Shown: positions 3,140 to 63,449, counted from the first letter of the stretch. The stretch: DNA of 64,000 bases from Camelus ferus (GCF_009834535.1 NC_045696.1:30692001-30756000); one strand, 5' to 3'. Numbers and translations: made by a program. Notes: a model not told the origin generated them from the sequence alone.

Positions 3140-3330
3140 TAACAGACTGTTATTGGTTTGAATTCTGAGGGTCCCATGTAAGCTCTGTACAAATAATCAT
3201 ATTGCTTAATATCTGTGAGCCTCTATTTACTGATAGTCAAAATAAAAAATAATATTACCCACCTCAATACTGTGTTATGAAGATTATATAAAATAATGCA
3301 TGTTAAGTAATCAGGCACTTGTTGGATTTT
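3140..3330 (+). mobile_element. MIR SINE remnant
   Basis: core-like 'ctgtgagcctctatttac...aataatattacccacctca...gttatgaagatta...ataatgcatgt'. Confidence 0.45.
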
Positions 3331-5359
3331 TAACAAATCTCTTCTGCAGTTTTTTGACTTAAATCATAAAGATAACTCAAACTATGATATAAAAAATGTT
3401 TTTAGGTATTTTGCATGGTTGCCACTGGCAATAAATTCTATAAAAATATAAACAATTATGTACATAATCCTCCATGCAAATGTATTATTTAATTCAAAAG
3501 GGGTATTAGAAGCATTTGCCTTAGTTCAGTAAAGTGATATTTAAAAATAATAAGCACTTGATATGCATTTATATGTAAAATAATTTTCTTTATCCATTGA
3601 CATTTCAGACTTTAGGAATGATTTAAATGGATTCAACCTTTCCTCCATTCATGACCAACATTTATAGGAGCACTGGTCACACCAAATTCATGGCAGTAAC
3701 TAGAGTCACGTGGCACACATGTTATTAAATCCATGCTGCTGCCCCAGTGTATACAATTAGTTTCAAACCTTTATTCAGACCATAAATAATCAGAATAAAC
3801 CTATGGTAGAATTTAGTGAGTTACATTTTATGATGCAGAATTTGAGTCTGCAAATTCTGTAGTGTGTTTCCTCTAAACATACTGAGTACTAGAGTTAGAA
3901 TAATTGCTAATGTAGTATAATTACTAGTGTACAAAGGTACTAGTGTAGAAAATTATCATCACTGATGGCAAGTCCAACCACGGAAGGTCCTGCACCGTAG
4001 TCAATGAGGCTATTTCTTTTATTAACCCTTATATCCCCTGCCATAGAGCAAATCAATACAATGGGATGAAATAAGGGTATATTCATGCCTTCTAAGAGCT
4101 GGAAGTTAAAATGCTTAAAATCATCACAAGTATTTTACCACTCTGTTATTCTAAATGTTCTCATAGGGCCTATATTTATTTTCCAAATTCAAATTGGAGC
4201 TTTATTTTTTTCTATATTGTAAAGTATGAGCGAAGTAAAATTCCACTGGCCTGTTGAAAGTCACTCTGGCCTTTTCCCAGTGGTTTTGTCTCCTGCATTG
4301 TGAACTGTTTTCCCCAACGATGACAGAAATGTCTTTTCCCCTCAGAGATGGAGGAAACAGGCAGAATTCATCAGTAAGTGGAAGAGACCTGACTGATACT
4401 GAGCCAAATTTGGAAAACTGTGCTGAGAAATAGGGAGCTTAACGAAGGATAGAAAAAGTTGGCTATTTCTTGCCTGGGGCTGGGTCCCCAGAGGCCTGAA
4501 TTAATATAAAGAAGATATGGGGGGGAAAAGGTATAGGAACCAATAGAAATTGAGTAAAGATAATCTATTTATAAACAAATTCTCTTGGGTGTGAAACTAT
4601 TACCTTTTTGACTCATGGAGCTATATATTACCCAGTAAATAATTTAGGGTAATTTGTTATTCAGATGTTATCTGACTGTAAATATAATCTGTAAAATTGT
4701 GTACACATACATAGACTTGGCTTTATTATGTATTAATTGAATGCTACCTGAGGATGGGCTCAATAATATCCAAGCAAGTAATTTACCTTTTCAACATATG
4801 GCAGTCGTCTCATGCAAGGGCATAAAGAAATTTGTTTATTTTCTTTTACTCATAAGCATGTGGAATTAAATAAGATTCCTGCCATTGCCCTTTCATCATT
4901 TCTTCATTAATTTAATCATTAAATTATTGCCTGATTACCTCCTGAAAAAAATGCTCAATTATCTTTTGGGACAGCTTTATATAATATTCAGGTTTTATTA
5001 TAAATGGTTAAATTTTCATTTAATTTAATCATAGTAACATTGCCTGTATCATCAGGTTATTGTTAAGGTAAAATCTGAATGTCTAGTTCTTGAGTATTTC
5101 CTTCTGTAACACTATAAAAATACTAAATGAGTAGGATACCTTCGCTAATATGCCTAACTAAGAATTTTCTAAATTGCCTAATCTCTCCTTGCTTACAAAA
5201 CCATTCCTAACTGAGGGAGCTATTTTGCCTTAGAAACAAAAATGTTATGAATGTGATGTAAGAATTTAACTTTTTTGTTTTTAAACTAACTGTCAAGATT
5301 CAGAAGTTTTGGGTCTTATAAATGTTGACAGTAAAGTCCCCTCTTTTCTACTACGTGAA

Positions 5360-5399
5360 CAGGGAGATTTGGGATGACTCATGGGGCTTAAAACAAGGA
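5360..5399 (+). repeat. Copy 1 of a 40-bp dispersed direct repeat (copy 2 at 7526-7564)
   Basis: cagggagatttgggatgactcatggggcttaaaacaagga vs cagggaaaattgggatgactcatggggctg-aaacaagga; exact 20-nt core ttgggatgactcatggggct. Confidence 0.85.
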
Positions 5400-7259
5400 C
5401 AGACAGAAAACTGATCTACTCAAGGGATTCATTCTATTATCTTGGGATACTTTTCATCTAAGACACAGGATTTGGACTCAACTGTGTATACCTGCCCTCT
5501 TCTCACTCCCTGCCCACACAGCTATCTGTGATACCTGCTCTTACACACTGCTTATATGTCTAATATATGAAATATATTTACTGGAAAATATATTCTCTGT
5601 GATTATCTTTCGTAATCCTAACCTAACCTAAGGGAAGGTCTACCCTAAGTTTTTAAAATTATTATCAATGCTTGACAATCTTTGTATTACATTCTCTAAT
5701 ATCATTAAAACCTTAGACCATTACCTAAACTGACATCTGGGAGATTATTAATTTGCAAATGCTTTACTGTTCTTAAAGTTTCTTTAGAAGCTCTTTGTTT
5801 CATTAAGCTAGTCACTGCATGGAATAACTTTATCTCACATTTTACAGTCTCCAAGAATAGTGAAGAATCCAGATATTTGCTAGAATTTTCATATTTTATG
5901 TTCAAGAATTTCTGTGTCAAGGAAGGCAAATACTGCAAGTTTCTTTTTTTGTCATTATGCTCGATTTTTATTTCCTAACAAAGATGTGCTCTTACCTGTC
6001 AGTTTTTCACCTGAAGTGCCCTAGGTGAGGAATGAGAGTGCCCTAAGTGTAACATAAGTTCAATTTCTGTCATTTTGTACAGGCCTTTCCTGGGTAGACT
6101 CTATTTGTACTTCTTCCCATAAAAACTTACCGGAAAGGGGTAGCTTACAGTCATTACTCTTTCCTAAGGGAAACTGAAAGAATCCATGGCAAACACGTTG
6201 CTTTATCTCTCTCCTGGGCTTGAGAACTTGCTTTTCTCTTCTTCGCCATGGCAGTAACAAAACTGTATCTTGATCTTTTCTTTCTGATGCATTTGTCATT
6301 TGGAATTGTTTTGAGGGCTGCTGGATTTTAAACTTGATTCATTGCTAAAGTTGGTTTTTGGATACAAAATTATAGATCCTAAAGCTAAATGTTGAGGGGG
6401 CCTGAGAACAAATGCAGCAATATAATCCTTAAAAATCCATGTGTCAGATTTGGAAGTTTTTACTTTCCTGTCCTACAAAATTTTAAAGTGAGATAATCCT
6501 GGTATCTTTCACATAAGCAGTTTATATTGAAATCATTTTAGGGAGAAATATGTCCTAAGAGAATAATTTAGATTGTTTGGCTGCAGAAAATATACTTTAT
6601 ATGATCCTTTATAAAATATACATATAGCCTAGGGTTTCAGATGATGTCTGTTTTATGAAATGAAAGAATGGTGATCAGGATAATAAAGTTTTTTTTTTTT
6701 TCATTACCAGTGGCATCTTTAACTCTAGAATTGGTGAGTAAGTGACATAATGCTTCATTTGATAGAGAGTGTCTTAAAGTATAAGACCTGAGTCATGATT
6801 TTAGTAAAAAATAAATTCAAAACTAGACTTATTTAAATCACTATTTATAGGAAGTATTTTAGTGATAAGTATTTAGTGATAAATAATAGTTATTCATTAA
6901 TTTAATCCAAAGTAATGGTGCTTTCTTCCTCCCATCGGTTTTTTTTTTTTTTTTTAATTTTTGAAGCAGGGAAACAATACATAAATATCTGCTTCAGAAT
7001 TTGGGGGAAATTTTTCAGCAAATAACAAAAAGACTCAAAATTACAGAAAGCCAAATTGTATATTAAAAGTCCCAAGAATTATTAATGTGGAGACATTTTC
7101 CTTAATAATAACATTATTAATACATCAATATTTCCATAAATACTACTTGATGACTCATATATTGGACTTGCTTAGTGATAAGCATAATGTACTAGAAAGT
7201 GTAGAACTATTTTATTTCCTCAGATTCAAAACTTACTGAACTATTGGCCAGCCATTGGC

Positions 7260-26889: not shown

Positions 26890-28763
26890 ATTTTTAAATT
26901 TTACTTTATTTTTACATAATTTTAAAATTATACTCAATTTACAGTTATTATAAAATATTGACCCCATGTGATATAATATATCCTTGTGGCCTATTTTACA
27001 CTCAATAGTTTGTGTCTCCCATCCCCCCACCCCTTTATTACCCCCCAACTGGTAACTGCTAGTTTGTTCTCTATATCTGTACATCTGCTTCTTTTTTGTT
27101 GTATTCACTAGTCTGTTTTATTTTTTAGATTCCTCATATATGTGATATCATACAGTATTTTTCTTTGACTTATTTCACTTAGAATAATGCCTTCTAACTC
27201 CATCAATATTGTTGCAAATGGCAAAATTTTATTCTTTTTTTTAATAGCTGAGTAGTATTCGCTTGTGGAATGTATAGAATATATATATATATATAGTTCT
27301 TTATCCATTCTTCTACTGATGGATACTGTTGTAGCTTTGCAATTGTAAATAATGCGGCTATGAACACTGGGGTGCATGTATCTTTTCGAATTAGTGTTTT
27401 TGCTTTTTTTCAAATATATACCCAGGAGTGGAATTGCTGGTTCATATGACAGTTCTATTTGTAGTCTTCTAAGAGACTTCCATACTGTTTTCCACAGAGG
27501 CTTCAGCAATTTATATTCCCACTAACATTTTACGTAGGTTCCCTTTTCTTCACCTTCTCACCAGCATTTGTTATTTGTATTTTTTTTTTTTTTTGATGAT
27601 AGCCATTCTGACAGGCATAAGGTGATATGTCATTGTGGTCTTTGATTTACATTTCCCTGATGCTTAGCAATGTTGAGCATCTTTTCATATGCCTGTTGAC
27701 CATCTGCATTTCCTCTTTGAAAAAATTTGTCTTCAGTTTTTCTGCCCATAATTTAATACAGTTGTTTGCTTTTTTTATGTTGAGCTGTATGAGCTATTTA
27801 TATATAACTTATATGTTTATATATGTTATGTTGGATATTAATCCCTTATCAGTCATATCATTTGCAAGTATTTTCTCCCATTCAGTTAGTTGTCATTTTG
27901 TTTTTGTCTGTTATTTCTTTTACTGTTCAAAAGCTTTTAAGTTTAATTAAGTCTCATTTGTATATTTTTGCATTTATTTTCTAAAGGAGACAAATCAAAA
28001 AAATTTTACTGTGAATTATTTCAGAGAGTGTTCTGCCTATGTTTTCCTTTAGGAGTTTTATAGTATACAGTCTTACATTTAGTTCTTTAATCATTCTTGG
28101 GTTTATTTTTATATATAGTGTTAAAGAATGTTTTAATTTCAATCTTTTACATGTAGATGCCCAATTTTCCCAGCACCACTTATTGAAGAAACTGTCTATT
28201 CCCCATTGTACATTCTTGCCTCCTTTATAATACATTAATTGGCCATAAGTGCATGGATTTATTTCTGAGATCTCTATCCTGTCCACGGATCTATGAGTTT
28301 GCTTTTATCCCAGTACCATGCTGTTTTGATAAGTGTGGCTTTGCAGTATAGTCTGAAGCCAGAGACCATGATTCCTCTAGCTCTTTTCTTCTTTTTCAAA
28401 ATTGTTTTTGCTTTGCATTTCCATACAAATTTTTTAATTATTCTAGTTTTGTGAAAGATGCCATTGGTATATTGATAGGGATTATGTTGACTATGTAGAT
28501 TGCCTTCAGTAGTATGGTCATTTTAATAATATTTGTCCAATTCAAGAACATGGTATATTTTTTTCATCTCTTTATATTGTCTTCAATGTTTTCATCAGTG
28601 TTTTATAGTTTTCAAAGCACAAGTCTTTTGACTCCTCAGGTTGGTTTATTCCTAGGTATTTTATTCTTTTAGATGCCACGGTAAATGGGATTGTTTCCTT
28701 AATTTCTCTTTCTGATACTTCTTTGTTAGTGTATAGACATGCAATCAATTTCTGTGTCTTAAT
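26890..28763 (-). mobile_element. L1 3' (non-inverted) segment of a twin-primed insertion; decayed ORF2 C-terminal half plus 3'UTR
   Basis: ORFs 27108-27509 (PLWKTVW...EPAIPLLGIY) and 27981-28286 ([18 protein letters not shown]) are L1 ORF2; 3' end near 26890. Confidence 0.92.

Positions 28764-28765
<2 letters not shown>

Positions 28766-28795
<30 letters not shown>
28766..28795. repeat. (AT)15 microsatellite at the L1 inversion junction
   Basis: directly visible; tg(at)15ca at 28764-28797 is a perfect palindrome. Confidence 0.95.
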
Positions 28796-28798
<3 letters not shown>

Positions 28799-29300
28799 TC
28801 TATCCAAAAAAAGTAGAATACACATTCTTTTCAAGTGCATGTGGAACATTCTCCTAAATGAATTACATGCTAGGCCTCAAAGCAAGCCCAGGTAAATTTA
28901 AGAACACTGAAATAATATCAAGCATCTTTTCTAGCCACAACACTATAAGACTAGAAATCAACTACCAAAAAAAAAAAAAAACTGCAAAAAATACAAATAC
29001 GTGGAGGCTAAACAATATGCTAGTAAACAACAATGGGTCACTGAAGAAATTAAAGATGAAAAAAATAAAATCCTACAAATAAAAATGAAAACAAGATGAT
29101 CCATAACCTATGGGGCTCAACGAAAGCAGTTTTAAGTGGGAAGTTAATAGTGATATAAGCTTACCTCAGGAAACAAGAAAAATCTTAAGTAAATAATCTA
29201 ACTTTACACCTAAAGTGACTAGAAAAAGAGAAACAAACAAAGCCCAAAGTTAGTAGAATGAAAGAAATCACATAGATCACATTTATTAAAAATAAATGAA

Positions 29301-29472
29301 GGGGAAGGTATAGCTCAAGTAGTAGATCACATGCTTAGCATACACCAGGTCCTGGGTTCAATTCCCAGTACCTCCATTAAAAAAATGTAAATAAATAAAC
29401 CTAATTACCTCCCCCTGCCAAAACCAAAACAAGGCGAAACAAAAACAACTAAACTGAAAATAAAAAACTTAG
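29301..29472 (+). mobile_element. tRNA-derived SINE, Vic-1-like (camelid), inserted in L1 ORF2
   Basis: 'ggggaaggtatagctcaagtagtaga' (A box), 'ggttcaattcc' (B box), tail 'aaataaataaacctaattacctcccc', A-rich end; 13-bp TSD aaaaataaatgaa at 29288-29300 and 29473-29485. Confidence 0.85.
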
Positions 29473-31274
29473 AAAAATAAATGAAACAGAGAGTAAAACA
29501 GTAGAAAAGATCAATGAAACTAAAAGCTGGTTCTTTGAAAACATAAACCAAATTGATAAACCCTTGACCAGACTCATCAAGAAAAAAACAGAGAGGCCCC
29601 AAAGCAATAAAATTGGAAATGAAAAAGAAGTTACAATTGACACCACAGAAATACAAAGGATCAAAAGAGGCTACTATAAACTAATATATGACAATAAAAT
29701 AGACAACCTAGAAGAAATGAACAAACTCCTAAAAAGGTACAAACTTCCAAGGCTGAACCAGAAAGAGACAGAAAATATGAACAGACCAATTACCAGTAAT
29801 GAAATTGAATGAGTAATTAAAAACTCTCAACAGATAAAAGTCCAGAACCAGATGGCTTCATAGGTGAATTCTACTAAACATTTAGACAAAAGTTAACACC
29901 TATTCTGAAAGTACTCCAAAAAATTGCAGATGAAGGAACACTTCCAAACTCATTCTATGAGGCCAGCATTACCCTGATACCAAAACCAGAAAAGATATCA
30001 CAAAAAAAGAAAATTATAGGCCAATTTCACTGGTTAACATGGGCGTAAAAATCTTCAACAAAATACTAACAAACTATATCCAACAATACATTGAAAGGAT
30101 CTTAGTGCATGATCAAGTGGGATATATCCCAGGGATGCATGATTTTTCAATATCTGCAAATCAATCAATGTAATACACAACATTAAAAAATTGAAGAATA
30201 AAAAACATGATCATCTCAATAGATACAGAAAAAGGTTTTGACAAAATTCAACATGTATTTATGATAAAAACTGTCCAGAAAGTGGGCATAGAGGGTCCAT
30301 ACCCCAACATAATAAAACAATATATAATGAACCCACAGCTAACATCATACTTAATGGTGAATAGCTGAAAGCATTTACTCTAAGATCAGCAACAAGACAA
30401 GAATGCTGACCCTTGTTACTTTTATTCAGTATAGTTTTGGAAGTCCTAGCCACAGCAGTCGGAGAAGAAAAAGAAATAAAAGGAGTCCAAATTGGAAAAA
30501 AAGAAGTAAAACCGTCACTGTTTGCAGATAACATGGTACTATATATAGAAACTCTTAAAGACTCTACCAGAAAACTACTGGAGCTCATCAATGAATTTAG
30601 TAAAGTTGAAGGATCAATTCCTTATTATTTTTAATGTGGGGGAAAAATATATAAATACACATATACATTTAAATGTAAAAGTACTGTCAAATTTGCTACT
30701 ATATATCAAGAAGTTTGAAAAGCGTTTTACTTATGAAGGACATAAGTAAAACTAATTGGAACATAGAGCTCCGTATCTATGCATAAGTGCAATGTAGTTC
30801 TCCCTCTCACACAAGAAATGAGTAGATACAAAATAGACTTCCTGTATGTTCTTACTTTAGATATATTTTCATTCATGAGAGAATGACTTGATGAAACATG
30901 TAATCATATTTAGCTTTGAATAAATTCACTTTAATTCAGTTTGTAGTATTGGCAGTAGAATTCATGAAAGTATGATTTTATGAAATACTTCAGGGCAGAA
31001 ATTTTAAATAAACTGTTAAAACAAATATAATATCATAAAACTACATGCACACACACTAGAACAAAGTATCCTAAGAATTCTGCAGTAAATATATATTTTT
31101 TTTACTATTGGTACATTGAACATGATTTGGGAAGATTCACCTCACACAGAAACTCATAAAGTATCTATGTATTTACATACTCTGGAAGACAAAGTCTTTG
31201 CATATAACACAGGAATACACTGGATAAACTCTCATGGGCTTTATAATTTCTCAGCCCAGTGATTACACATTATA

Positions 31275-35960: not shown

Positions 35961-38443
35961 CTCCTTATAGAAATTAGGAAAATATATGGTGATGTCAGGT
36001 CAACTCTGTCTTTTTCAATTATGTGATCCAAATTTCTCCAAAAAACATTTTGTGGTGAAGGACTTAAACTTAGGAGACTGGGCAATTTGAATTATCCTTT
36101 TTAAAAAAATGGGGGGGTTAATATGTTTACAAAGTTTCAAAAGGAAGTGAATAATGTCATAGATGTCACTATTTACTTAAACCATTGATTTATAAATCAA
36201 AAGAATGGGAAAAAAATGAAGAACCCTAGAGATATATCTCCAATCCTTGGTCTGTTGTTTTGAAAACTTTGTTCCATTACAATCAACATATCCAAATCAT
36301 TCTTTTATTAGCTGTCCCTCAATATGAATACTCATTTGTCTTTAAAACTGATTTCTCTGCTTTTATATTTGTCTTGACTCTCATTTTTCACAAATAAAAC
36401 TTCAAAAGGTCCAAATTTATCCTGTTTTTGTATGAAAGGGAGATCATTCAAACTTGTAAATGTGTATATTTTAAAAACTTTGGATTCTATAAAATGAAGC
36501 ATTAAGTTATTTTATGTTCTTTTGCTTACTTGTATATTTATTTGTGTATTAAATATGTAAAATACATATTTTACTTTTGTGTATTAAATATGTAAACTAC
36601 ATTCTCATACACTTTTAAAATCATGGTCAATTGAATGTTTATGTGAATTTCTTTCATAATTTAGTAAGCAAAATACAATACTGAAAAAGAAGAATGTTGC
36701 TAAAATATTTTAATATAAAGACATTTTTCAGTATGTATCTACACTTCTTTATGTTCCCTCAAATTGATTTCTGTCTGCATTTAGTCATGATCAAGTGTCT
36801 TTAGAATGTATTATTTATATCCAAGTTGGAAACATCACTAACAACGGGAAGTTTAAATAATTTGTACATTTAAATACCATGTTATAAGCAAGTAATGCTA
36901 TAACATACTTTAAATTACTATATAGTGTAACAAGCATGCAGAAGTTTTCCTAAAATAGATAAATAGCTTAATGAATTTTTTTATTAAAGTATAGTCAGTT
37001 ATAATATATCAATTTATGGGGTAAAACACAATGTCCCATTCATGCATATAAATACATATATTCATTTTCATATTCTTTTTCATTAAAGGTTATTATAAAA
37101 TATTGAATATAGTTCCCTGTGCTATATAGAAGAAATTTTTTAAAATCTGTTTTTATATATAGTGGCTGACATTTGCAAATCTCAAACTCCCAAATTTACC
37201 CCTTCTCACCCCTTTTCCCCTGGTAAACATAAAATTGTTAACTATGTCTGTGAGTCTGTTTCTGTTTTGTAGTTGGGTTCATTAGTGTCCTCTTTTGTTC
37301 TTTTTTTAGACTCCAAATATGAGTGATATATGATAGTTTCTCTTTCTCGCCTACTTCACTTAGAATGATGATATATAGGTCCATCCATGTTGCTGCAAAT
37401 GGCATTATTTTATTATTTTTTATGGCTGAAAAGTATTCCATTGTATAAATGTACCACAACTTCTTTATCTAGTCTTCAGTTGATAGACAGAACTTTGGGG
37501 TTCATGTACCTTTTCAAGTTGGATTTCCCTTTGGGTATATGCCCAGGAGTGGGATTGCTAGATTTTAGTTTTTTGAGGAATCTTCATACTGTTTTCCATA
37601 ATGGCTGCACCAAACTACATTTTTTTAACATTATTTTATTGAGTAATAGTCACTGTACAATGTTGTTTCAAATTCTAGTGTAGGGCACAGTTTTTCAGTT
37701 ATATATGAACATATATATATTCATTGTCATATTTTTTTTTCTGCTATGAGCTACCACAAGATCTTGTTTATATTTCCCTGTGCTATACAGTATAATCTTG
37801 TTTATCTACTCTGCATTTTAAAATCCCAGTCTGTCCCTTCCCACCCCTCACCCCCTTGGCAACCACAAGTTTGTATTCTATGTCTATGAGTCTGTTTCTG
37901 TTTTGTATTTATGTTTTGTTTTGTTTTTAGATTCCTCATATGAGTGATCTCATATGGTATTTTTCTTTCTCTTTCTGGCTTACTTCACTTAGAATGACAT
38001 TCTCCAGGAACATCCATGTTCCTGCAAATGGCGTTATGTTGTCCGTTTTTATGGCTGAATAGTATTCCATCGTATAAATATACCACCTCTTCTTTATTCA
38101 GTCATCTGTTGATGGACATTTAAGCTGTTTCCATGTCTTGGGTATTGTAAATAGTGCTGCTATGAACATTGGGGGAGAGTGCAGGTGTCATTTTGAAGTA
38201 GGGTTACTTCTGGATTTATGCCCAGTAGCGGGATTCCTGGGTCACATGGTAAGTCTATTCCTAGTCTTTTGAGGAGTCTCCATACTGTTTTCCACAATGG
38301 CTTTCCTTGCTTCCCTCTCCCACTCTTAATGATTTAGATGTCTTATTTTACAATTTTGTGTTTATTCTTTTTGTAATTCATGGCAGTTATCTCCTTTCTA
38401 GTTATGAGTTTCTCATTTTTGTAGCATCCTGCTTCTTTTCTAT

Positions 38444-39342
38444 TTAGAGTAGACCTGTCAATATTTCTTTTAGCATGGGTTTAGTGTTGCTAAACTCTTT
38501 CAGTTTTTGCTTGTCTGTGAAGTTCTTTATCTCTCCTTTGATTCTAAAGGATAGCCTTGCTGGATAGAGTATCCTAGGCTGCATCTTTTTTTCATTAAGG
38601 ACTTTGAATATAGCTTGCCACTCCCTTCTGGCCCGTAGTATTTGTGTAGAGAAATTAGCTGAGAGCCTTATGGGGGTTCCCTTGTAACTCACTCTTTGTT
38701 TTTCTCTTGCTGCCTGTAGGATCATTTATTTCTCTTTGACTCTGGCCATCTTGATTATAATATGTCTTGGTGTGGGTCTGTTTGGGTTCTTCCTGTTTGG
38801 GACCTTCTGAGCCTCCTGTACTTGGATATCTGATTCCTTTAGGTTTGGGAAGTTTTCAGTCACAATTTCTTCAAATACCTTTTCAATTCCCTTTGTTCTT
38901 TCTTCCCCTTCTGGAACCCCTATCATGCATAGATTGGCACACTTTAGATTATCCCATAGGTCCCTTAAATTGTTTTCATTGTTTTTTATTTGTTTTTCTC
39001 TCAGATGTTCTGATTGGGTGCTTTCTGTTGTCCTGTCTTCTGGGTCACTTACTCGTTCTTCTGCATTATCTAGCCTGCTTTGTACAGCCTTTAGGTCAGC
39101 TCTCATCTCAGCAAATGAGTTTACTAATTCTACTTGGTTCTTCTTTATAGCTTCTGTTTCATTTTTGACAGATTTTGTATCTCTAAACACTATTTCTTTT
39201 AGTTCCTTCAGTACTTTGATCACTCCTTTTTTCGAAATCTTGATCTAGTAGGCCATCAATGTCTATTTCCTTGATCATGCTTTCAGGGGATTTCTTGATC
39301 TTTTATTTGGTAGTGGTTCCTCTGCTTCTTCATATTGCTCAT
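38444..39342 (-). pseudogene. L1 ORF1 of the nested half-L1, nearly intact
   Basis: ORFs 38726-39223 and 38444-38725 are in one frame, separated by a single TAA where the host copy has GAA; motifs REKQ, ARREW, YPARLSF; small frameshifts near the ATG (39333/39342). Confidence 0.9.
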
Positions 39343-39369
39343 ATCTCTCTAGCACTGTGGCTTAAGAGT

Positions 39370-40680
39370 ATCAGTTATCTAGTTCTCTTGGAGACACTGT
39401 GCTCTTAATGATTTCATCGAGAGGTCTTTGTGTCTTCACCCTGTTTCGCAAACTCAGCTTGCTGTTTCCAGAGGCCCTCTGTTGGCACCCTCATCTGTGT
39501 TGCTCCCAGTGGCTGTTGGCTAGCAGATCACACCCCCTCCCAACACTGGGTCAGGTGCTGAGCTCTTATCCAGTGGGCGGATGGGTCACTCCCCTTCCCA
39601 ATGCAGCAGTCAGATGCTGTGCTCGGGGGAGGCAGGTGGGCGGATTGTGCCCCCTCCCAGCACCGTGGTCAGGTGCCGTGATCCTGCCCACAAAGTGGGT
39701 TGCCTCCCGCCCTTTCCTGGCGCCGGTCGCTCTGCTGCTCTGTGCAGCTGCCCTCTCCCCCTCGGGTCGGTGTTCCGAAGGTGGGCTCGTGGAAGACCGC
39801 GGAACGGCCCCACCTCTGCTCCATGCCAAACCTCAGCTCCTTATTTGTCTTGGTGGTGCAAGTTCTCTGAGGTGCCAGGGCAGAAAGATCCTATCTGCCT
39901 CCAGCCGTAAACAAGTCTCAGTCCTGCCTAGGAGGTTGCAGAGCCCCTGGGTGTGGATTCAGGCCTCGGCCCCACCCCCGCCCGGGTGCTGTGCACAGGA
40001 GAATATGGTAGCTGTGGCTGAGCCCCGCCTCTCTTCTCATGAGAAGCCCCAGTAATGGCAGCGCAGGTCTGAGGAGACAAAGGTTAAGGCACCCCTCCCC
40101 CCAGGGCACACCAGCCGTGTTGCTTTGCTTTCTTCGCAATCTATGGGAGACTGAGGTTGTTCTGCTCTGTATCCCCTCCCAGCCATGGCGCACAGCCCCC
40201 TGCAGTCCCCAGGGGCTGCCTCAGTGCAGCCGCCTCAGTCCTCCACCCGGTACAGGAGGCCTGTCCCGGCCCCAGCTGCTGGCTCACATCTTGGGCTGGG
40301 TGTTGTGGGGACCCTTCGTGCCCATTTAACTCAGTTCTGTCAGTCAAGGGGTGCTCGGGGTAGATCTGAGCCTCAGAGGCTCCCTCTCTGTCCCGCTGGC
40401 CTCTCCATTGGAGAGGGGAGACCCAGTGAACGAGCGCCAGTCCTCCTTTGCCGCTCCATCCCCGCGGGATCAGTCCTGCACTGTTTTGCTTTTTCTTCTT
40501 TCTTTTTTCCTTTTTTCCTACCAGAGTTTTGGCGTCTTTGTCTTTCTAAGAGGGCGATGTTCTGTTGGAGTTCGGCAGGTGCTCTGGTTGGCTGAGTGGG
40601 TCCATAGATGTGAGTTTTGGTGTATTTGTGGGAGAGGGTGAGCTACAAGCGTTCTTCTACTCCGCCATCTTGCTTCTCTC
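39370..40680 (-). promoter_or_regulatory. CpG-rich L1 5'UTR internal promoter with YY1 motif (CAAGATGGCGG, 40662-40672)
   Basis: the only clearly GC/CpG-rich block in the window; YY1 motif near +9 of the element, as is typical of L1 5' ends. Confidence 0.75.
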
Positions 40681-43600
40681 CCAAACTACATTCTTACCAG
40701 CAGTCTCTCCACACCCTTTCCAGGATTTATCCTTCATAGACTTTTTAATGATGGCCATTCTGCCTGTTGTGAGGTAATACCTTGTTGTAGTTTTGATTTT
40801 CATTTCTCTAATAATTAGTGATATTGAACATTTTTTCATGTGTCTTTTGGCCATTTCTGTGTCTTCATTGGAGAATTGCTGGTTTGGGTCGTCTGCCCAT
40901 TTTTAGGTTGGGTTGTTTGTGTTTTGTTGTTAAGTTGTATGAGCTATTTATATATTTGGAAATTAAACCTTTGTCAGTCACATCATTTGCAAATATGTTC
41001 TCCCATTCCATAGACTGTCATTTTGTTTTGCTTATGACTTCCTTTGCTGTGCAGAAGCTTATAAGTTTAATTAGGTCCCATTTGTTAATTTTTGCCTTTA
41101 TTTCTATTGCCTGGGTACACTGCCCCTGGAGAACACTGCTGAGATTTATGTCAGAGAATGTTTTGCCTAAGTTTTCTTCTAGGAGGTTTATTGTGTCTTG
41201 TCTTATATTTAAGTCTTTAAGCCATTTTGAGTTAATTTTTGTGTATGGTGTGATGGAGTGTTCTAACTTCATTTATTTACATGCTGCTGTCCAATTTTCC
41301 CAACACCACTTGCTGAAAAGACTGTCTTGTCTCCATTATATATTCTTGCCTCCTTTGTTGAGGATTAATTGACCATATGTCTGTGGGTTTATTTCTGGGC
41401 TCTCTATTCTGTTCTATTGATCCATATATCTGTTTTTATGCCAATACCATGGTGTTTTGATTACTGTAGCTCTGTAGTATTATCTGAAGTCTGGGAAGGT
41501 TATTCCTTCCGCTTCGTTCTTTTCTTAAGTATTGCATTGGCAATTCTGGGTCTTTTGTGATTCCATACAAATTTTAGTATTATCTGTTTGAGTTCTGTGA
41601 AAAACATCATGGGTAATTTGATAGGGATCACATTAAATCTGTAGATTGCCTTGGGTAATATGGCCATTTTAACAATATCGATTCTTCCAATCCAAGATCA
41701 TGGGATATCTTTCTATCTCTTCAAGCCATCTTTAATTTCCTTAAGCAATGTTTTGTAGTTCTCCACATATATGACTTTCACCTCCTTGGTCAGATTTATT
41801 CCTAAGTATTTTATTGTTTTGGATACAATTTTAAAAGGGGTTGTTTCTTCACTTTCTTTTCCTGCTATTTCATTGTTAGTGTAAAGAAATGCACCCGATT
41901 TCTGTATGTTAATCTTGTATCCAGCAATCTTGCAGAATTCTTTTATCAGCTCTAATAGTTTTTGTGTGGAGCTTTTAGGATTTTCTATATATAGTATCAT
42001 GTCATCCACATACAGTGACAATTTTACCTCTTCTCTTCCAATTTGGATCTTTTTTATTGCTTTCTCTTGCCTGATTGCTGTGGCTAGGACTTCCAATACT
42101 ATGTTGAATAGAAGTGGTGAGAGTGGGCATCCTTGTCTTGTTCCAGATCTTAGTAGGAAGGCTTTCAGTTTTTCACCACTGAGTATTATGCTGGCTGTGG
42201 GTTTGACCTAAATAGCTTTTATTATATTGAGATATGTTCCTTCTATACCCATTTTGGTAAGAGTTTTTGTCATAAATGGGTGCTTAATTTCATCAAATGC
42301 TTTTTTTTTTTTTTTTTTTTTTTTGCATCTATTGAGATGATCATGTGGTTTTTGTCCTTTCTTTTTGTGGATGTAGTGTATCACATTGATGGATTTGCAT
42401 ATATTGAACCATCCTTGTGTTCCTGAGATGAATCCAACTTGATCATGGTGTATAACATTTTTTATGTGCTATTGGGATCAGTTTGCTACTATTTTCTTGA
42501 GTTTTTTTGTTGGTTTGTTTTTTCTTACATGATCTTACATCAATGATAATTGGACTGTAATTTTCTTTTTTGGTAGTGTCTTTGGTTTTGGTATCAAGGT
42601 GATGGTGGCTTCATAGAATGAGTTTGGTAGTTCTCCCTTCTTTTCAATCTTTTGAGAGAGTTCGAGAAGGATCAGTATGAGTTCTTTGTATGTTTGGTAG
42701 AATTCTCCAGAGAAGCCTTCTGGTCTTGGACTTTTGTTTGTAGGGAGGCTTTTTAATTGCGTATTCTATTTCATTTCTAGTGATCTTTCTGTTCAAGAGA
42801 TGTTTCTTCTTGATTCAGTCTTAGTGGACTGCATGTTTCCAGAAACTTGTCCAGTTCTTCTGGGTTGTCCAATTTGTTTCCATATAGTTGTTCTTAGTAT
42901 TCTCTTAAGGATTTTTTTGTATTTCTGTGATATTGGTTGTAATTTCTCAATTTTTCTTTCTTATTTTGTTTATTTCATATCTCTCTCTTTTATTCTTGGT
43001 GAGCCTTCCCAGAGGTTTGTCAATGTTGTTTACTCTTTCAGGGCTCTTGGTTTGATTGATTTTTTTCTATTGTTTTTTTTTAAATCTCTATTTCCTACCT
43101 GATCTTTATTATTCCCTTCCTTCTGCTGACTTTAGGTTTTGTTTGTTCTTCTTTTTCTGATTCTTTTAGATTGTGGATTTGGTTGTTTATTTGAGATTGT
43201 TCTTACATTTTGAGAAAGGCCTGGATCACTATGAACTTAGGAATGTTTTTGCTGCATCCCATTAGTTTTGTGTGGTTGTATTTTCATTATCATTTGTCTC
43301 AAAGTATTTTTTAATTAATTCTTTGATTTCATCATTGACCCATTGGTTTTTTAATAGCAAGTTGTTTAATATCCATGCTGTCATTTTTTTTTTCTCCTTT
43401 GTTTTTCTGTGGTTGATTTCTAGTTTCATGGCATTGTGGTCAGAAAAGATGTTTGAAATAATTTCTATCCCTTTAATTTGTTGAGGCTTCTTTTGTGCCC
43501 AAGTATATGATCCATCTTATAGAATGTTCCTTGTGCACTTGAAAAAAAGTATATTCTGTTTTGGGGGGATGTAATGTCCTAAAAATATCAACTATTCTAT

Positions 43601-44493
43601 TGTGTCATTTAGTATCTGTGTTGCCTTATTGATTTTCTGTCTGGAAGATCTGTCTAATGATGTGAATGGGGTGTTAAAGTCTCCTCCTATGATTTATTCC
43701 CATCACTTTCTCCCTGTCCATTAGTATTTGCTTTATGTATTTAGGTGCTCCCATATTGAGTGCATATATGTTAGCAAGTGTCATATCCTCATCTTGTATT
43801 TCTCCTATAATCATTATATAGTATCCTTCTTTATCTTTCTATATGGCCTTTGTTTTAAAGTCTATTTTGTTTGAAATCATTATTGCTACTCTTGCTTTCT
43901 TGTCATTTCTATTTGTATGAAATATCTTTCCATCCTCTGACTTTCAATCTATGTGTATCCTTCACAATAAAGTAGGTCTCTTGTATGTATGCAGCATATT
44001 GTAGATTCTTGTTTTATTATCCAAGCTGTCACTCTTTCTTTTGATTGGAGCATTTAGTCTATGGACATTTATGGCAATTATTGATAGATTTGTGTTTACT
44101 GCCATTTTGAACTTAGTTTTCCAGTTGAGTTAGAATTTCCTCTTTGCTCCTTTTTCTTTTTCTTTTCCTTTTTGTGGTTTGATCATTTTCTTTTGTATTA
44201 TCTTGGTTTCTTTTTAGGTCTTTGGGACTCTATTGTATGCTTTTGATTTGTGGTTACCCTGTTTTTCAAATATATTAACCCATTACTATATCTGTGCTTT
44301 AAACTGATAGTCATATAAGTTCAAAGACATCCTAAAAATAATGAAAAAAAGAGAAAAAATTTGTATTTTCTTGCTCCCCTCTTCTATCTTTAATGATTTT
44401 GATGTCCTCTTTTACATTTTCATGTTTGTTCTATTGTGACTCATTGTAGTTGTCTCATTTCCTATTATGGTTTTCTCCTCTCTTATTTTCTAT

Positions 44494-45362
44494 TCAGAGT
44501 AGACCTTTCAATATTTCTTTTAGCATAGGTTTAGTATTGCTGAATTATTTTAGTTTTTGCTTGTCTGTGAAATTCTTTTTCTCTCCTTCTATTTTAAATG
44601 ATAGTCTTGCCGGAAAGAGTATCCTAGTTTGCAGCTTTTTCTCATTCAAGACTTTGAACATATTTTACCTCTGCCTTCTGGCCTACAATGTTTGTGTTGA
44701 AAAATCAGCTGAAAGCCTTATGGAGGTTCCCCTGAAACAGTTTTTCTCTTGTTGCCTTTAGAATCATTTCTTTATCTTTAACCTTGGCCATCTTAATTAT
44801 ATGTCTTGTTGTAGGTCTATTTGGGTTCTTCTTATTAGGGACCCTCTGTGCTTCCTGTACTGTACCTTTAGGTTTGGGAAGTTTTTGATCACGATTTCTT
44901 CAAATACCTTTTCAATCCCCTATTCTCTTTCTTTTCCTTCTGGGACCCCTATTATGCAAAGATTGGGGTGCTTTATATTATCTCATAGGTCCCTTATATT
45001 GGTTTCATTAGTTTTTACTTGCTTTTCTTTCTGTTGTTCTGATTGGGTGATTTCTGTTATCCTGTCTTCTAAGTCACTTACTCGTCCCTTTACATTATTT
45101 AGTCTGCTTTTGACTGCCTTTAACTTGGCTCTTATCTCAGCCATTGAGTTTTCTGTTTTTAATTGGCTCCTCTTTGTATTTTCTATTTCCTTTTTATAGT
45201 ATTCTGCATGTTTATTCATAGTCTCTCATATTTCATTCAATAGTTTTATCATTTCCTTTTTGAAGTCATAATCTAGTAGACCTCAAGGTCTATTTCATTA
45301 ATTGTTCTTTCAGGGGACTTCCATTGTTCTTTTAATTGGGAGGAGTTTCTCTGCTTCTTCAT
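44494..45362 (-). pseudogene. L1 ORF1 (host element), disrupted
   Basis: ATG AAG AAG CAG at 45362; coiled-coil piece 44983-45219 (AEIRAKLKAVKSRLNNVKGRVSDLEDR); ends GGT CTA CTC TGA. Confidence 0.85.
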
Positions 45363-48300
45363 TCTATTTATAACTCTCTGGCACTACAGATTATGAAATA
45401 TCAGTTATCTACTGTGGTCTTGAAGGGCTTTTTTTTTTTTATTTAAATAGGACACATTTCTGTGTAGACTGTGTGCCTCTAATAATTTTGTCACAAAGTA
45501 TTTTTTTTTTTTAATGTTGATAGTTGCCACATCTTTCTTCTGTGTGTTGGCTGTTACATATTTGAGTGGGGGTGTGGCCAGTGTTGTGGTGATCAGAGCC
45601 TGCCCCTGGTTGTTCAGCAGGGCCTCCTTTTTGTTCTGTGGATGTCACGGCCCTAACAGGGGCCAGGTCTGTTCCCCTTTTGTTGGAATGGAAGCTTGCA
45701 GAACTGTTTCTGACTTGTGGTTTGTTGCAGGCGGGGTTGGAGCCCTTCAAGTACTCTTTGTTGATGCTGCCCTTGTCCTTGCTTTGGCCACAGTCAGATA
45801 CTCTGTTTTGGTGTCCCCCAGGTTCTCTGCCCTCAGAGCTACCAGTGCAGTTCTGCCAACATCTGGGTCACACTTTTGGATCATGGCACGCTATCAGGTC
45901 AGCACTATCCCTAGCACTGTGTCTGAGTAAGGTTGGCAGGTCCACTGAAAACTCTGCACCTGTACTTGCCTCCACTGTGTGCCAGAACTCCAGTCCTTGC
46001 TCATTTGTCTTAGAGGCCTGGGTCCACAAAGGCACCTGTGGAGCAAATTGGTCCCCTCTGCCTCGGGCTGTAAACAAAGCTCAGTCCTGCCTGTGAAGTT
46101 GCAGAGCTCCTGCTTACGGATTTAGGTTTCAACCCCTCTACACCTGGGAGCTGCTCACCAGGGAATATGGTAGCTATTGCTCAGCCCTGCCTCTCTTCTA
46201 GGAGAACACGCCAGCAATTGTGTCGTGGGCTATGGAGACAGTGGCTATGGCTCAGCTGCCTTTCGTCCCTCCTTACAATGCGTACTGGCAGTGTTGCTTT
46301 CTTTCTTTCCTGCTTTCTTTCTTTCTTTTTTTTTTTAAATGAGGGACCCAGGCTATTCTGTTCTAAATACACTCCCAGCCACAGCCCATAGTACTTCTGG
46401 CCTCCTGAAGCTGCCTCTGTGCAGTCGGCCCTAACCCTCCACCTGGCTCGGGCAGCCAGTCCTAGCCCACTCCCACTGGCTTGTGTCTAGGGCTGGGGAT
46501 CACAGGAACCTTTTGTGCTAGTTTCTCTCAGTTCTGCTAGCCAAGAGGCTGCTGTGCACTCCTCTGAGCCTCAGAGGTGCCCCCTCCATCCTCACTGACC
46601 TCTCCATTGGAGAGGAGGCATCCCAGCATAAAAGCTCTATTCCTCCTTTGCCACTCCATCCCTGTGGGACAGGTCCTGAATTAATTTTTGCTTCTTTTTG
46701 TTGTTGTTGTTGTTCTCCTACCAGATTTTGTGAGGAATTTTGTCTTTTGAAGAAGGTGATTTTCTATCAAAGTTCATCAGGTGTGCTGAGTGAATGGGTG
46801 GGTCTGTGATGTCTGTCTTGGTGTATTCATGGGAGAGGGTGAACTAAGAGCATCCTACTCTGCCATCTTGGCACCCTCCTGCTTAATGAATTATTTTGAA
46901 TTGAACCCCCATAAAACCCTCACTCAGGTTAAGAAATAGAATGCTGCATTATAATTTAGCTTTTGAGACTAACCATTTTTTTCTCTGAAAATAAATGTGT
47001 TTCATAACACAGCCTTTATGATAGCTGAGTTTAATTTCTCTTCTAAGCAATCTATAAAATGTAGCTTTAAATTGTAGCTAACATATTCACATGAAAAAGT
47101 GTAGAAACTTCAAACAACATTCTTTCACAAGTCCTTGCTTTCCCTGTAGGAAGCCTGAAAACTTGATTTAAAGAATTTTAAAATTTGTCTTGGTTTGTCT
47201 AAGAAAAATATCTAGGCCCCCCATAGCAGGGAACGTACTCTAACCAGAATAACCATTTACGTTGTAATGTTAGCAGAAGCACAAAGCATTGATACCTCAG
47301 ATCAGTTTTTCAATTGTGATGAAAAACTATTCACTAATAGCTACTCAAGCGAATAGGTACCTACTTAATGAAGAGAAATAAATCCATTCTCTATCCCAAA
47401 TAATGCAAAATTGTGGAAGAAAATAATGGAAAAGGAAACATAAGAAATTCATACATAAAATTACCAAAACTAGGAAATTCTAGGATTGATCATTCTGATG
47501 ATTTGTCCTGTGAATATGTACAAGGGCATGTGACTGTCACATCTTTATGATTGTTGTTCAATTGAAAGAGAAATTCTGAAGTTCAAATATCAAGGAAATA
47601 CATTATAAATTACAGTGTGCATGCTTTCTCTTCTAATACTTTACTGTCATGTTGTTAGACTACTCTCTGTTAAGAAAATAATGTTAACACCTCCCCCCTT
47701 CCCTTATGTGACACAGTCTTTAGATAAGAATACATAACCTTGTCTTTCTACACTATTTTGCTCCGCATGTCAGTCCTCTGCTATTATTCTTTAGTGATTT
47801 CTATTCTCCGCCTTTAAATCAAACCTAAGCAAGTCTTTCTTATAACTACCTACTGCTAGATTGGATCTTTGTTTATTGTTCAAATTGAGTAGCTTTGATT
47901 TTTTTTTTTTTTTACTCCCCTGCTTATACTTTATTAATCTGCCTTACCATTCCCATTTATCTAGTCCTTCATTTTGATTTATCTATTTCACATTGTCTTC
48001 CAGATGATGGATATCCTTTGGTGCTTAATTTTTAACTGCTGACCATTTTTCACTTTGTTAAAATATTCATAGAAGGTAGAATAGAAGAGGATTAGAGAAA
48101 GCAAATTCAGTGAAAATTATAAAATGAGGGATTCTTTGGAAATAGTGTTGACTAAATTATTGCCATTAATTCCTTTAAGTTGTCAATAGTAAATTGACTC
48201 CAAAATCAAACAAGTGTAAACTACTGAATTAGTTAGAATGAAAATACACATTTGAATTTTAATTATAAAATTCGACTTTATGAATGAACAAAGGGTGAAA

Positions 48301-56539: not shown

Positions 56540-57597
56540 TTAAAATTTAAAAAAAAATTTATTGAAGTATAAATGATTTACAATGTTGTATTAGTTTCTA
56601 GTGTACAGTATATTGATTCAACTATACATACATGTATTTACATATTCTTTATCATTGTAGGTTATTACAATATTTTGAATATAGTTCCCTGCGCTAAACA
56701 GTAAAACCTTGTTTTTCTATTTTCTATTTGGTCATTAGTATCTGCAGATCTCAGACTCCTAATTTATCCCTCCCTCCCCCTTCGCCCTCTAGTCACCATA
56801 AGTTTTTTTCCCATGTGCATCTATGTCTGTTTTGTAAATAAGTTCATTTGTATCATTTTTTTACATTCCAAATATGTGATATCATATGATATTTGTCTTT
56901 CTCTGTTTGACTTACTTTTCTTAGTACGATAATCTCTAGGTCCATCCATGTTATTGCAAATGGTAGAATTTTATTCTTTTTTATGGTTGAGTAGTATTCT
57001 GTTGTATATAGATCACATCTTCTTTATTCAGTCATCAGCTGACGGACATTTAGGTTGCTTCCATGTTTTGGCTATTGTAAATAGTGCTGCTATGAACTTG
57101 AGGGTGCATGTATCTTTTTGAACTAAAGTGTCCTCTGGATATATGACCAAAAGTGGGATTGCTGAGTCATAGGGTAAGTCTACTTTTAGTTTTTTTTTTT
57201 TTTTTTTTTAAGGAATCTCCATACTGTTTTCCATAGTTTCTGTACCAAATTACATTTCCACCAACAGTTGTAAGAGGGCTCCCTTTTCCTTTTCTCCACA
57301 CCCTCTCCAGCATTTATCATTTGTGGACTTGTTAATGATGGCTATTCTGAGTGGTGTGAGGGGTGATACATCATTGTAGTTTTGATTTGTATTTCTCTTT
57401 GTATAATTAGCAATATTGAGCATCTTTTCATGAGCCTCTTGGCCATCTGCATGTCTTCATTGGAGAAATGTCTGTTTAGATTTGATTGCATTTTTGTTGC
57501 TGTTGTTTTTATTGAGTTGTATGAGCTATTTGTATATTCTGGAATTTGAGCCCTTGTGGGTCTCATTGTTTGCAGATATTTTCTCCCAGTCCATAGG
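56540..57597 (-). mobile_element. 5'-truncated L1 with TSD
   Basis: 11-bp TSD gtggaacattt at 56529-56539 and 57598-57608; ORF 57342-57566 ([20 protein letters not shown]). Confidence 0.9.
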
Positions 57598-57969
57598 GTG
57601 GAACATTTAAAAAAAAAATCTCTAAACTCAGAAAGGGATAGTCTGAAGAAAACTATGTAGTTAGTTTAAAAAAGTGTTGGCCAATACATCGGTGTGCGAC
57701 TTTAGTGATGATAGGTGAGCTCATGAAGGTTAAGATAGGAAGTTCTATCAAATGATTAGTCAAATCATTTGGGATTCAAATGGTTTGTCAAAATCGGTTT
57801 GCAAACTTGAAGTTTCTGTGTTTTTTAAAATGTCTAGTGTTTTAAAAAGTAATACTTAAGCTGTAACTAATATTACTGATAAATATGGATTATGAGGATA
57901 GCTAGCAAACAGTAGGAGAATGTTTCATCATGTTCTGTGGTTTGGTAAAAACTGATTAAGAGTTTTCTG

Positions 57970-58160
57970 ACTTAATACTCACAATAATTTCATGAGGTAT
58001 GCATTGTTATTAGTCCCATTTTACAGATGAAGAAAATGAGGTTTAAGGTGGATAAATCACTTGTTTAAATTTCCATGGTTAATAAATGGCAATGCTGAGA
58101 GCTGAACCCAAGAAATAAGATTTTGCCACTCACTCTTGTAACCAATTCAATATATTGCCT
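57970..58160 (-). mobile_element. MIR remnant
   Basis: 'ttattagtcccattttacagatgaagaaaatgaggttta'. Confidence 0.6.
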
Positions 58161-58533
58161 CTCTAGAAGGTAGAAGAAATAATCAGTCTATTTATTTTCT
58201 GAAGAATATATTTCAAATGTAATTTGGACACAATTTATTTATCAAAAATTTCTATACATTTCCAATTGAAGTTTTTAATTTTTGGAGGAGAATAATTCTG
58301 AAAAAATGTTAGCAATTCGGGTATGTTTTTTCCTAATTTTTCAGAAAAACTATATAAGATGTCCTTTAGGATTTACTATTAATTCACTAAATATATGTTT
58401 ATCACCTTCATAATATTCTAAAATTAAAATATACAACTAATTTTATTCAGAAAAAGCCACTGATAAGAAGCAATGTTTAAAAAGCTTAAAGCATTTACAG
58501 ATTTGATACAAGAATAAATAAAGAACTTCGGTG

Positions 58534-59538
58534 CTGCAAATGACATGCCTGATAAGAGGTTACTATCCAAAATATATAAAAGTATATACAGCTCAATATC
58601 AAAAAGCAAATATTAAAAATGGGCAAATACCTGAGTAGATGTTTTTCCCAAAAATGTATGCAGATGGCCAAAGGCACATGAAAAGATGCTCAACATTGCT
58701 AATTATCAGAGAAATGCAAATCAAAACTACAGTGAGATATATCACCTCAAACCTATTGGAATAGCTATCATAAAAAGCCTATAAATAACAAATGTTGCCT
58801 AGGATGTAGAGAAAAGGGAACCCTTAAACACTGTTGATGGGAATGTAAATTGTTGCAGCTACTGCAACAATTGGAAAACTGTATGGAGGTTCCTCAAAAA
58901 ACTAAAAATAGAACTACTATATATGATCCAGTAATTTCACTCCTGGATAAATATACAAAGAAACTAAAAACACTAATTTCAAAAAGATACATGCACCCCA
59001 ATACTCATAGCAGCATCTTTTAAAACAGCCAAGTGTCCATCAACAGATTAATGGAAAGAAAATTTGATGTGTGTGTGTATATATACACACACACATACAC
59101 AATGGTATATTATTCAGTCATAAAAAGAAATTCTACCATTTGCAAAAATATGGATGGACCTAGAGGGTACTATTCTTATGAAATGTCCGGCAGAGAAAGA
59201 CAATTACTATATATAATCACTTATATGAGAGATCTGAAAAATATACAAGTGAATATAGCAAAATATAAACAGACTCACAGGTATAGAGAACAGACTGGTG
59301 GTTACCAGTGAAGAAAAGGAGAAGGGGATATACAGAGTGATGGTAGGGAATTGAGAGGTATAAACTCTTGTGTATAAAATGGATAGGCTACAGGAATGTA
59401 TTCAACCTCCCAGGGAAATACAGCTATTGTTGTATGATGACTTTAAATGGAATATAACCTACAGAAATGTTGAGTTGCTATGTTGTGCACCTGAAACTGA
59501 TACAGTGTTGTAAATCAACTCTAATTCAATTTACAACA
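58534..59538 (+). mobile_element. 5'-truncated L1 with TSD
   Basis: 14-bp TSD aaagaactt(c/a)ggtg at 58520-58533 and 59539-59552; ORF2 C-terminal motifs and 3'UTR ending 'tgtaaatcaactctaattcaat'. Confidence 0.9.
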
Positions 59539-61741: not shown

Positions 61742-63449
61742 GAACCACTCATGAAATTCAGAAAAATCAGGAAAAATGAAGAAAGAAACTGCAACAATTT
61801 TTTATGTATAAGTCATAAAAGAAAACGGTAAATTTTTTATTTACAATTCTCACCATCAATAGTATATCTATTTCCTGATTGTATTGTTGCTTAATAGTTA
61901 AAACAGCAGTATTTGGAGGAGACTGTAATCTAGCGCTCCAGTGCTGTTTTATTTCAAGAACACATAATGAGTCTAGGCAGCCACTTCTGGGGTGAAATCT
62001 TAATTTTAAATTTGAACAAGCTATCAAGAACTACAAAATACAAGGACAGACACAAATCATCAGAGACATGACATTACAAAGTAAATTATTTACATTAGAA
62101 GAAACAGTTAATAAACCAATATAAAGGACTTTAATAATTTATATACTAAAGTGAAAAAGAATTAGTTAATAAAGCAATATAAATAAAACTTAATAGTTTA
62201 TATACAAAGTAAAAAGAGAAGCCAGGTGGCTGGAGAAAGTTACTCTGGATTAGGTGGGAAAGCATGGAAAGGTAAAGTGAGTGCAGATGATGTAAGAGAT
62301 ATAAAGAAAATGGAAATTTATAGCTGCAATTTTTAATTCTGTACAGATAACATGTACATCCCCAGATTCCTCCTGTAGCTCTAAAAGAGTCCATTTTTGT
62401 TGTCTGTTACAATGTCATGCCATTTTTTACTCATTGATTCAAAGTCCATGTTGTTTTAAAATATAATAAATAATCTTCTGAACATTAGACTTCTCTAAAA
62501 AACAAATCTGCATTTATCAATTAGTGTAAATCTAATGTCTGTTTTATTTCCAACATCCTATTGGTCTTATCTTGACCTGAACACATAGGACAGTTAGGAT
62601 AGGGAAGAAAACTACTGAGCTTGTTTTATATCCCCCAAGTCCCACCCCTAGGAAGTCCTGGACCGCTGAAAGGTAGAGCAAATTAGACATCGGGACAAGT
62701 GGACAGCAGAGTGTGTTACAGAGCGTATGGAGCACAATTATTTTTCACCCCTCAAATTTTTATACAATTACAGCAGTAGGTAAAACAAGCAATTTAAAAT
62801 GGAAGGCAGCCTACTTGATTTTTGGTGTTAATGAAAACTGTGCTAGGTTGTAGAAATAACAGGTTTAAAGTAGCACCAGTATCTTTCAAAACCAGAGACT
62901 AAAATCAATGGTTTCATGCATAAGTCCACTTTAAAAATCCTCTATTCATGTCTCCCCAACTGTCTTTAATATGGATTCCCAGGTGTGCTTCTGCTTTACT
63001 TTAGTTACTGCTGATATCATTAAGTTTGTCCTTATTCAAAGATCATTATTGTAATTTGGGTCTCTTACTAGGGCAACTAGAGGCTGTTACCTGTGAGCCT
63101 TTTATTAAATCTTATGCCTTCTTGTACAAGACATCTCACCTTTGTGGTCATAAAATTTTTAAACTTACCAAACTTCTGCCAGTTTCTTCTAGAGTTTTTT
63201 GATCTGTACATCCATTCAAACAGTATCAAAATTACCTTTATTTCTAAGTTTCTTTATTTCTACTTATTTTAAAGCTTGATGCATTTCCTTCATCCTATAC
63301 TATAATTAGACTATAAAGGCTAATTCATTTCTAGATTTCCCGTATGAACTGCCCTCTGTAGCTGCTTCTGACCACTCAAAAGAGTAAGAGAATCTTAATG
63401 ATTATAGAACACAACTCCTAATAATCAGTAAATAATAACCATATGTTAA

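Follow-up and report, generated by a model that had tools for sequence, protein, structure and literature searches.

Structure of the half-L1 element and its host

A 3.06-kb L1 insert lacking the enzymatic part of ORF2 raises the question of whether it is a copy of a non-autonomous camelid family or the product of a single deletion, both of which had been left possible by the original prediction. It lies in the window, i.e. the whole 64-kb stretch of Camelus ferus DNA analyzed, in which all coordinates are counted. The element comprises 3,059 nt on the minus strand (40680-37622) and is nested in an older L1. It runs from an L1 5'UTR through ORF1 and 142 nt of spacer to a clean jump, after which the final 680 nt of L1 follow. 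The predicted size, intact L1 5' end, spacer of ~140 nt and jump at ~38301 to the last ~680 nt were thus confirmed. The 12-mer CCAAACTACATT, predicted as an exact 12-bp target site duplication (TSD), has exactly two occurrences in the window (37610 and 40681) and therefore sets the bounds of the insert at 37622 and 40680. When 5000 pairs of 40-nt zones with like spacing were drawn at random, draws that may include the real pair, 5 shared a word of at least 12 nt. A longer TSD of 15 nt with one mismatch can also be read; the nick site is CATT/CT for the 12-nt TSD and TCTT/AC for the 15-nt TSD. Once joined, the flanks of the element form a single older L1 of full length (6,839 nt), which has its own 12-nt TSD (36966 and 46881). 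The features are listed below.

40693..46880, minus strand: host L1 5' part (5'UTR, ORF1, spacer and most of ORF2), from alignment; host TSD copy at 46881
40681..40692, minus strand: TSD copy at the element 5' end, 12 nt exact or 15 nt with one mismatch
39343..40680, minus strand: L1 5'UTR with intact purine-rich 5' end, 72.5% and 68.4% identical to the host 5'UTR; Pol II promoter presumed
38444..39342, minus strand: ORF1 with trimerization, RRM-type and C-terminal domains (Pfam), two frameshifts and one stop
38302..38443, minus strand: first 142 nt of the inter-ORF spacer, 77.3% identical to the host spacer
38301..38302, minus strand: deletion junction, 1 nt of microhomology relative to the host, 3,688 nt missing
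37927..38301, minus strand: last ~125 codons of ORF2, broken, without endonuclease, reverse transcriptase (RT) and upstream cysteine motif; matched to dromedary ORF2
37622..37926, minus strand: L1 3'UTR with AATAAA (37640-37635) and short A-rich tail, from alignment to the host
37610..37621, minus strand: TSD copy at the element 3' end, exact 12-mer
36978..37609, minus strand: host L1 3' part, exactly continuous across the insertion site, from alignment; host TSD copy at 36966

When the host was aligned with the insert removed, the 5' part of the element corresponded to host positions 11-824 and 1470-2515, and its 3' part started at host position 6204. Host positions 2516-6203 have no counterpart in the element, so that 3,688 nt including endonuclease and RT are missing, in agreement with the ~3.7 kb proposed earlier. 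Identity to the host is 81% in ORF1, 77% in the spacer, 83% in the ORF2 tail and 73% in the 3'UTR. The 5'UTR (1,338 nt, 58% GC) contains 43 CpG, with an observed/expected ratio of 0.38 versus 0.12 in the host; its description as CpG-rich therefore holds as far as enrichment is concerned and needs the qualification that the sequence is decayed. It is presumed to contain an active internal Pol II promoter. The tail is short, AATAAA being followed by 13 A-rich nucleotides. The marks of a unit insertion by target-primed reverse transcription (TPRT) are present, namely the intact 5' end, the A tail, though short, and the TSD, and the layout is that of HAL1-type elements, with L1-derived 5'UTR and ORF1 and without the ORF2 endonuclease and RT. 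No RNA structure stood out near the junction (z 0.70).

The ORF1 (39342-38444) matches PF17489, PF02994 and PF17490, all above the Pfam cut-off. To call it near-intact was generous: two frameshifts are found near its start (~39290 and ~39235) and one in-frame stop at 38728-38726, and full ORF1p therefore cannot be made from this copy. The host ORF1 has nine stops in the same kind of alignment, against one in the element. The dN/dS ratio of 0.38 over 249 codons, calculated between element and host, reflects the L1 lineage and not constraint within a family.

A probable second locus with the same junction

The element is quite probably a defunct member of a camelid HAL1-type family present at several loci, mainly because a dromedary gene model, P0185 (KAB1270384.1), fits its junction with no substitution while intact L1s need at least three, and also because of the complete 5' end, tail and exact TSD expected of TPRT. 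P0185 was the best of 8 proteins retrieved out of 15 candidates by using the 57-residue frame across the junction as query, in a search ranked by likeness to the element. This C. dromedarius protein consists of element-type 5'UTR sequence up to ASENSKL, followed by R-K-PLWKTVWRLL; in intact L1 proteins, ECSLVQ precedes PLWK. With exon boundaries deduced from the predicted protein, joining the GT at the end of the element's 5'UTR to the AG just before the junction yields L-R-K-P with 0 substitutions. The P0185 residues require three substitutions from the host empty site, three from the copy at 27.5 kb and ten from the copy at 57.2 kb. By a hand estimate, the AG and the two residues would occur together in unrelated sequence with a frequency of ~1 in 4,000.

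P0185 departs from the element at 6 of 41 tail residues and, over the final stretch of the 5'UTR, at 6 of 29, so its locus is a paralog and not this locus. All its matches within the window are to L1, with none outside L1 sequence. One cysteine is common to P0185 and the element and absent from P0039, P0186, P0193 and P0194. The junction signature was found in one of the four named dromedary proteins covering the site (P0185). The lysine at that position also occurs in three other proteins among 111 motif matches, in intact-type context, and likewise in a second stretch of P0193; it is therefore not diagnostic alone. On this evidence the junction is very probably present at several loci, mostly under the HAL1-type reading. 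The support for a family is indirect: it comes from the agreement of a single paralogous gene model with the junction and not from a count of DNA copies.

Downstream, P0185 continues into an older same-strand L1 tail, as is the case at the locus studied here. In a comparison made to see whether this second tail derives from the host, the two differ at 12 of 45 residues; the majority control, with only four rows of a younger subfamily, carries no information.

Searches for further copies

A single match to the junction, the element itself, is present in the 64-kb window. The junction pattern had no match in JGI metagenomes and IMG/VR viral contigs, nor did the spacer pattern in GTDB genome contigs; these collections showed no camelid L1 control, and their zero matches therefore weigh little. 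No ORF1 was detected by scanning the viral contigs. A search for junction peptides of near length returned one protein, which is of the intact type, and no junction form. Among the best 150 of 4,594 matches in the junction search of all representatives, 13 start at residue 8 or earlier, and none of the eight examined carries spacer-side residues. The ORF1 locus scan gave one locus with 69% identity, which was rejected as a family member for its short spacer and intact ORF2 start. Parts of 37400-40900 were found in 20 of the 24 sequencing-run rows listed, as judged by word content only; the share of words was 0.48-0.53 in 14 DNA or unlabelled rows (four organisms) and 0.10-0.30 in six RNA rows.

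The counts of L1s intact only in ORF1 given in PMC5203782 are 494-677 in camelids, 706 in ferret, 653 in walrus and 7,898 in sloth; the camelid counts are not raised, and any family is thus probably not both large and young. Among 3,611 somatic solo L1 insertions reported in 10.1101/2024.08.27.596794, 10 are full length and 3,598 are 5'-deleted; single colinear deletions that leave the 5' end intact therefore seem uncommon. No camelid HAL1 was found in a search of published papers, as distinct from the repeat libraries Repbase and Dfam.

Coincidence of breakpoint and target site

The 3' piece of the element begins at an L1 position homologous to a site 3 nt beyond the TSD in the host. The TSD corresponds to host positions 6189-6200 and the 3' piece starts at host position 6204; 38262-38302 matches 37566-37606 at 90% over 41 nt. 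The TSD encodes ECSLV, which is read just before the breakpoint in parent-type ORF2. The chance of such a match within ±15 nt is 0.0013 per random insertion and 0.0045 given a landing in the host, and within ±3 nt it is 0.0003 and 0.001, respectively, all under the assumption of independence and based on five homologous sites in the window. L1 insertions into L1 show a 2.2-fold sense bias in PMC2836564, where same-type sense self-insertions were left out; this bias lifts the coincidence chance only a little. In the literature, no report was found of a deletion ending at the homologue of its target. This match had no place in the original prediction and is the part of possibly greater importance.

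Taken alone, the match favours an event tied to the target, in which the RNA would have paired with the nicked strand and the RT stalled and jumped to the spacer. Given the second locus, three readings are to be weighed: chance, a family birthplace and homology-guided landing. Chance takes the larger share, being more likely, but not by much. That the match is causal is possible but doubtful; the RT would then have run into RNA paired with the homologous target and skipped ORF2, making this locus the birthplace of the half-L1 family, or the family would land on older L1s guided by homology. If the latter is true, family RNA would pair with older L1s up to the junction and the nick would be steered, so that copies would lie at one L1 position.

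Alternative explanations

The coincidence bears on a one-off origin without any family: a full-length L1 RNA would have been inserted into a homologous L1, with the RT stalling at the segment that matches the target, switching to the spacer and continuing to the 5' end. The start of the 3' piece 3 nt past the TSD homologue and the 90% identity to the host over the 41 nt after the breakpoint would be expected from such an event. Moreover, intact dromedary ORF2 proteins (P0039, P0186 and P0193) read ECSLVQ just before the sequence of the 3' piece, which is what the TSD encodes, and the parent RNA therefore matched the target there. Templated insertions are known at up to 15 bp from L1 insertion sites. 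The nick CATT/CT fits the consensus 5'-TTTT/A given in PMC5860796 poorly, which counts in favour of this origin; however, the 15-nt TSD with one mismatch gives the ordinary nick TCTT/AC, and since the one nick is atypical and the other ordinary, the nick site does not decide. P0185, on the other hand, suggests that another, diverged locus carries this junction too, and no published description of a one-off outcome of this kind was found. A one-off origin is therefore improbable. Of the two options offered originally, the family has gained from the junction fit of P0185, and a single deletion, if placed at the moment of insertion, has been strengthened by the match of breakpoint and target.

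Splicing was considered because the junction has an AG on its 3' side. An L1 mRNA might have had its spacer joined by splicing to an acceptor within the ORF2 tail and then been retrotransposed once or repeatedly, like the human SpIREs, which account for ~2% of the full-length L1s in primates (PMC5860796). A cut between GGAAAG and CCATTG is possible, the acceptor then being the AG of the intact CAG, and a shared junction at several loci would result. However, GT is missing at the homologous spacer position in the host and in two pig consensus spacers (2 of 8 places), the acceptor has little polypyrimidine tract, and the cut required leaves four differences from the host in 12 nt, against one in 9 nt for the other cut. 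A splice origin has a small probability, and in view of the missing GT the simpler explanation is a template jump at 1 nt of microhomology. Loss of 3.7 kb in the genome after a full-length L1 had landed is very improbable. Intact ends and a TSD fit any full-length insertion, and the retained parts are about equally far from the host (spacer 77%, ORF1 81%, ORF2 tail 83%), but such a loss accounts for neither the second locus nor the breakpoint-target match, and recombination between element and host would be expected to have eliminated one end of the element, its 5' part or its tail, with one TSD. An assembly misjoin of two L1 copies can hardly be credited. The region is L1-dense; however, the two sides have 1 nt in common, which is too short an overlap for joining, a single TSD accounts for both ends, and an independent gene model fits the junction.

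Comparison with known elements

HAL1 elements, as described in PMC5753468, PMC5786205 and PMC13756887, consist of an L1 5'UTR and ORF1 without the ORF2 enzyme domains, followed by an L1 3' end, with a TSD and a size of ~3 kb; according to the same sources, which cite Smit 1999 and Bao and Jurka 2010, they arose several times independently in mammals. The element shares the layout, TSD and ~3 kb size and differs from them as a plain colinear deletion that keeps ~125 ORF2 codons. The pig HAL1_SSc (L1A6) is 3,016 nt long with a 5'UTR, a 906-nt ORF1 and an A tail (PMC6501411). It resembles the element in its ~3 kb size, its 5'UTR and ORF1, and a break inside the spacer. However, its 5'UTR is of another type, and its AT-rich 3' part does not follow the ORF2 tail and ends in a short L1 terminus, as seen by eye. 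Identity of the element with HAL1_SSc was rejected for the different 5'UTR and 3' junction in this comparison of the consensus by eye; the junctions are not the same, which argues for a separate origin.

SpIREs, like the element, appear as full-length-looking L1s with an internal deletion, a TSD and an AG at the 3' side of the junction (PMC5860796). As described there, they lose the promoter or the start of ORF1 and are dead on arrival, whereas the element keeps both promoter and ORF1. In template-switch and templated L1 insertions, the cDNA leaves the RNA and resumes elsewhere, and such events cluster at up to ~15 bp from the insertion site (10.1101/2024.08.27.596794; PMC11702581; PMC13174262). 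The classes described in these sources are 5' deletions, inversions or insertions from non-L1 templates, and in none of them does a colinear gap of 3.7 kb end at the target homologue while the 5' end is intact.

Camelid relationship and putative origin

The camelid assignment made in the original prediction is well supported by C. dromedarius proteins, whose best stretches are 63-88% identical to the 5'UTR, ORF1 and ORF2 tail of the element. The ORF2 tail is 83-88% identical to P0039, P0186, P0192 and P0193, and pig ORF1 is 62% identical to the ORF1 of the element. Autonomous camelid L1s (KAB1253934.1, KAB1260518.1 and KAB1265850.1) have an ORF2 tail 83-86% identical to that of the element and extend upstream into the cysteine-rich part of ORF2, which the element does not. 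From these protein comparisons, they are likely to represent its parent lineage and enzyme donor; L1-2_Vpa is the Repbase name for one camelid autonomous L1 (PMC6726744).

In L1, the 5'UTR drives Pol II transcription, the poly(A) tail recruits ORF2p, which may act in trans, and insertion proceeds by TPRT (PMC5860796). Under the HAL1-type reading, a founder L1 would have been shortened by 3.7 kb between the spacer and the ORF2 tail, probably when the RT jumped on 1 nt of microhomology, and the founder RNA would have retained promoter, ORF1 and poly(A) tail, with ORF1p being made. Family members may have been transcribed from their own 5'UTR and inserted by TPRT in trans with ORF2p borrowed from contemporary full camelid L1s; such mobilisation is suggested by the presence of a TSD and the absence of RT. 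The present copy would have arrived in the host L1 as a complete unit and decayed afterwards.

As a family copy, the element would stand for a further independent emergence of L1 parasites with ORF1 only, and for one by a simple colinear deletion. The match of breakpoint and target bears on the way in which HAL1 elements originate and on a possible use by L1 RNA of homology to its target, and a family with a fixed junction would make both countable, as insertion sites in L1 coordinates. Camelid repeat and gene annotation would also be corrected. Such sequence has already been read as protein in P0185 and in P0026, a dromedary protein with 63-84% identity to the element in its best 5'UTR and ORF1 stretches.

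Dromedary gene models related to the element

Two predicted proteins of Camelus dromedarius, P0185 (KAB1270384.1) and P0026, match positions 37984-40602 of the window, within the ORF1-only element, and each consists partly of L1 5'UTR, ORF1 or ORF2-tail sequence. One of these gene models is named as cylicin-1 and carries about 370 L1-derived residues at its C-terminus, which is likely an annotation artefact. The element and a third dromedary protein, P0192 (KAB1266627.1), have four tail residues in common that are mostly absent from the intact-type proteins, the L1 ORF2 proteins continuing upstream of the junction site; the gene model of P0192 begins just after that site. P0192 may thus represent a third copy of the candidate HAL1-type family, or a close L1 relative.

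The ORF1 scan also detected a metagenome contig locus (L001), of which positions 1-1149 are a mammalian L1: the final part of ORF1 is followed by a short spacer and the start of ORF2, and two SINE-like inserts interrupt the ORF2 start.

L1 and other repeats in the window

Two further L1 copies were delineated:

36966-46892, host L1 of the element, complete and older, 6,839 nt long and flanked by a separate 12-nt TSD
27048-30597, internally inverted L1, with a minus-strand part at 27590-28763 and a plus-strand part at 28815-30597

The host L1 bears two small internal deletions in its 3' part, just downstream of the insertion site. The inverted L1 looks like a product of twin priming, and an (AT)15 repeat lies where its minus part gives way to its plus part; a search for a TSD of this copy found none that was convincing. 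Elsewhere, two L1 3' fragments with 67% likeness (56558-59327) point in opposite directions and are separated by about 1 kb, and a 58-nt A-rich unit is present in two copies, 82% alike, at 62099-62217.
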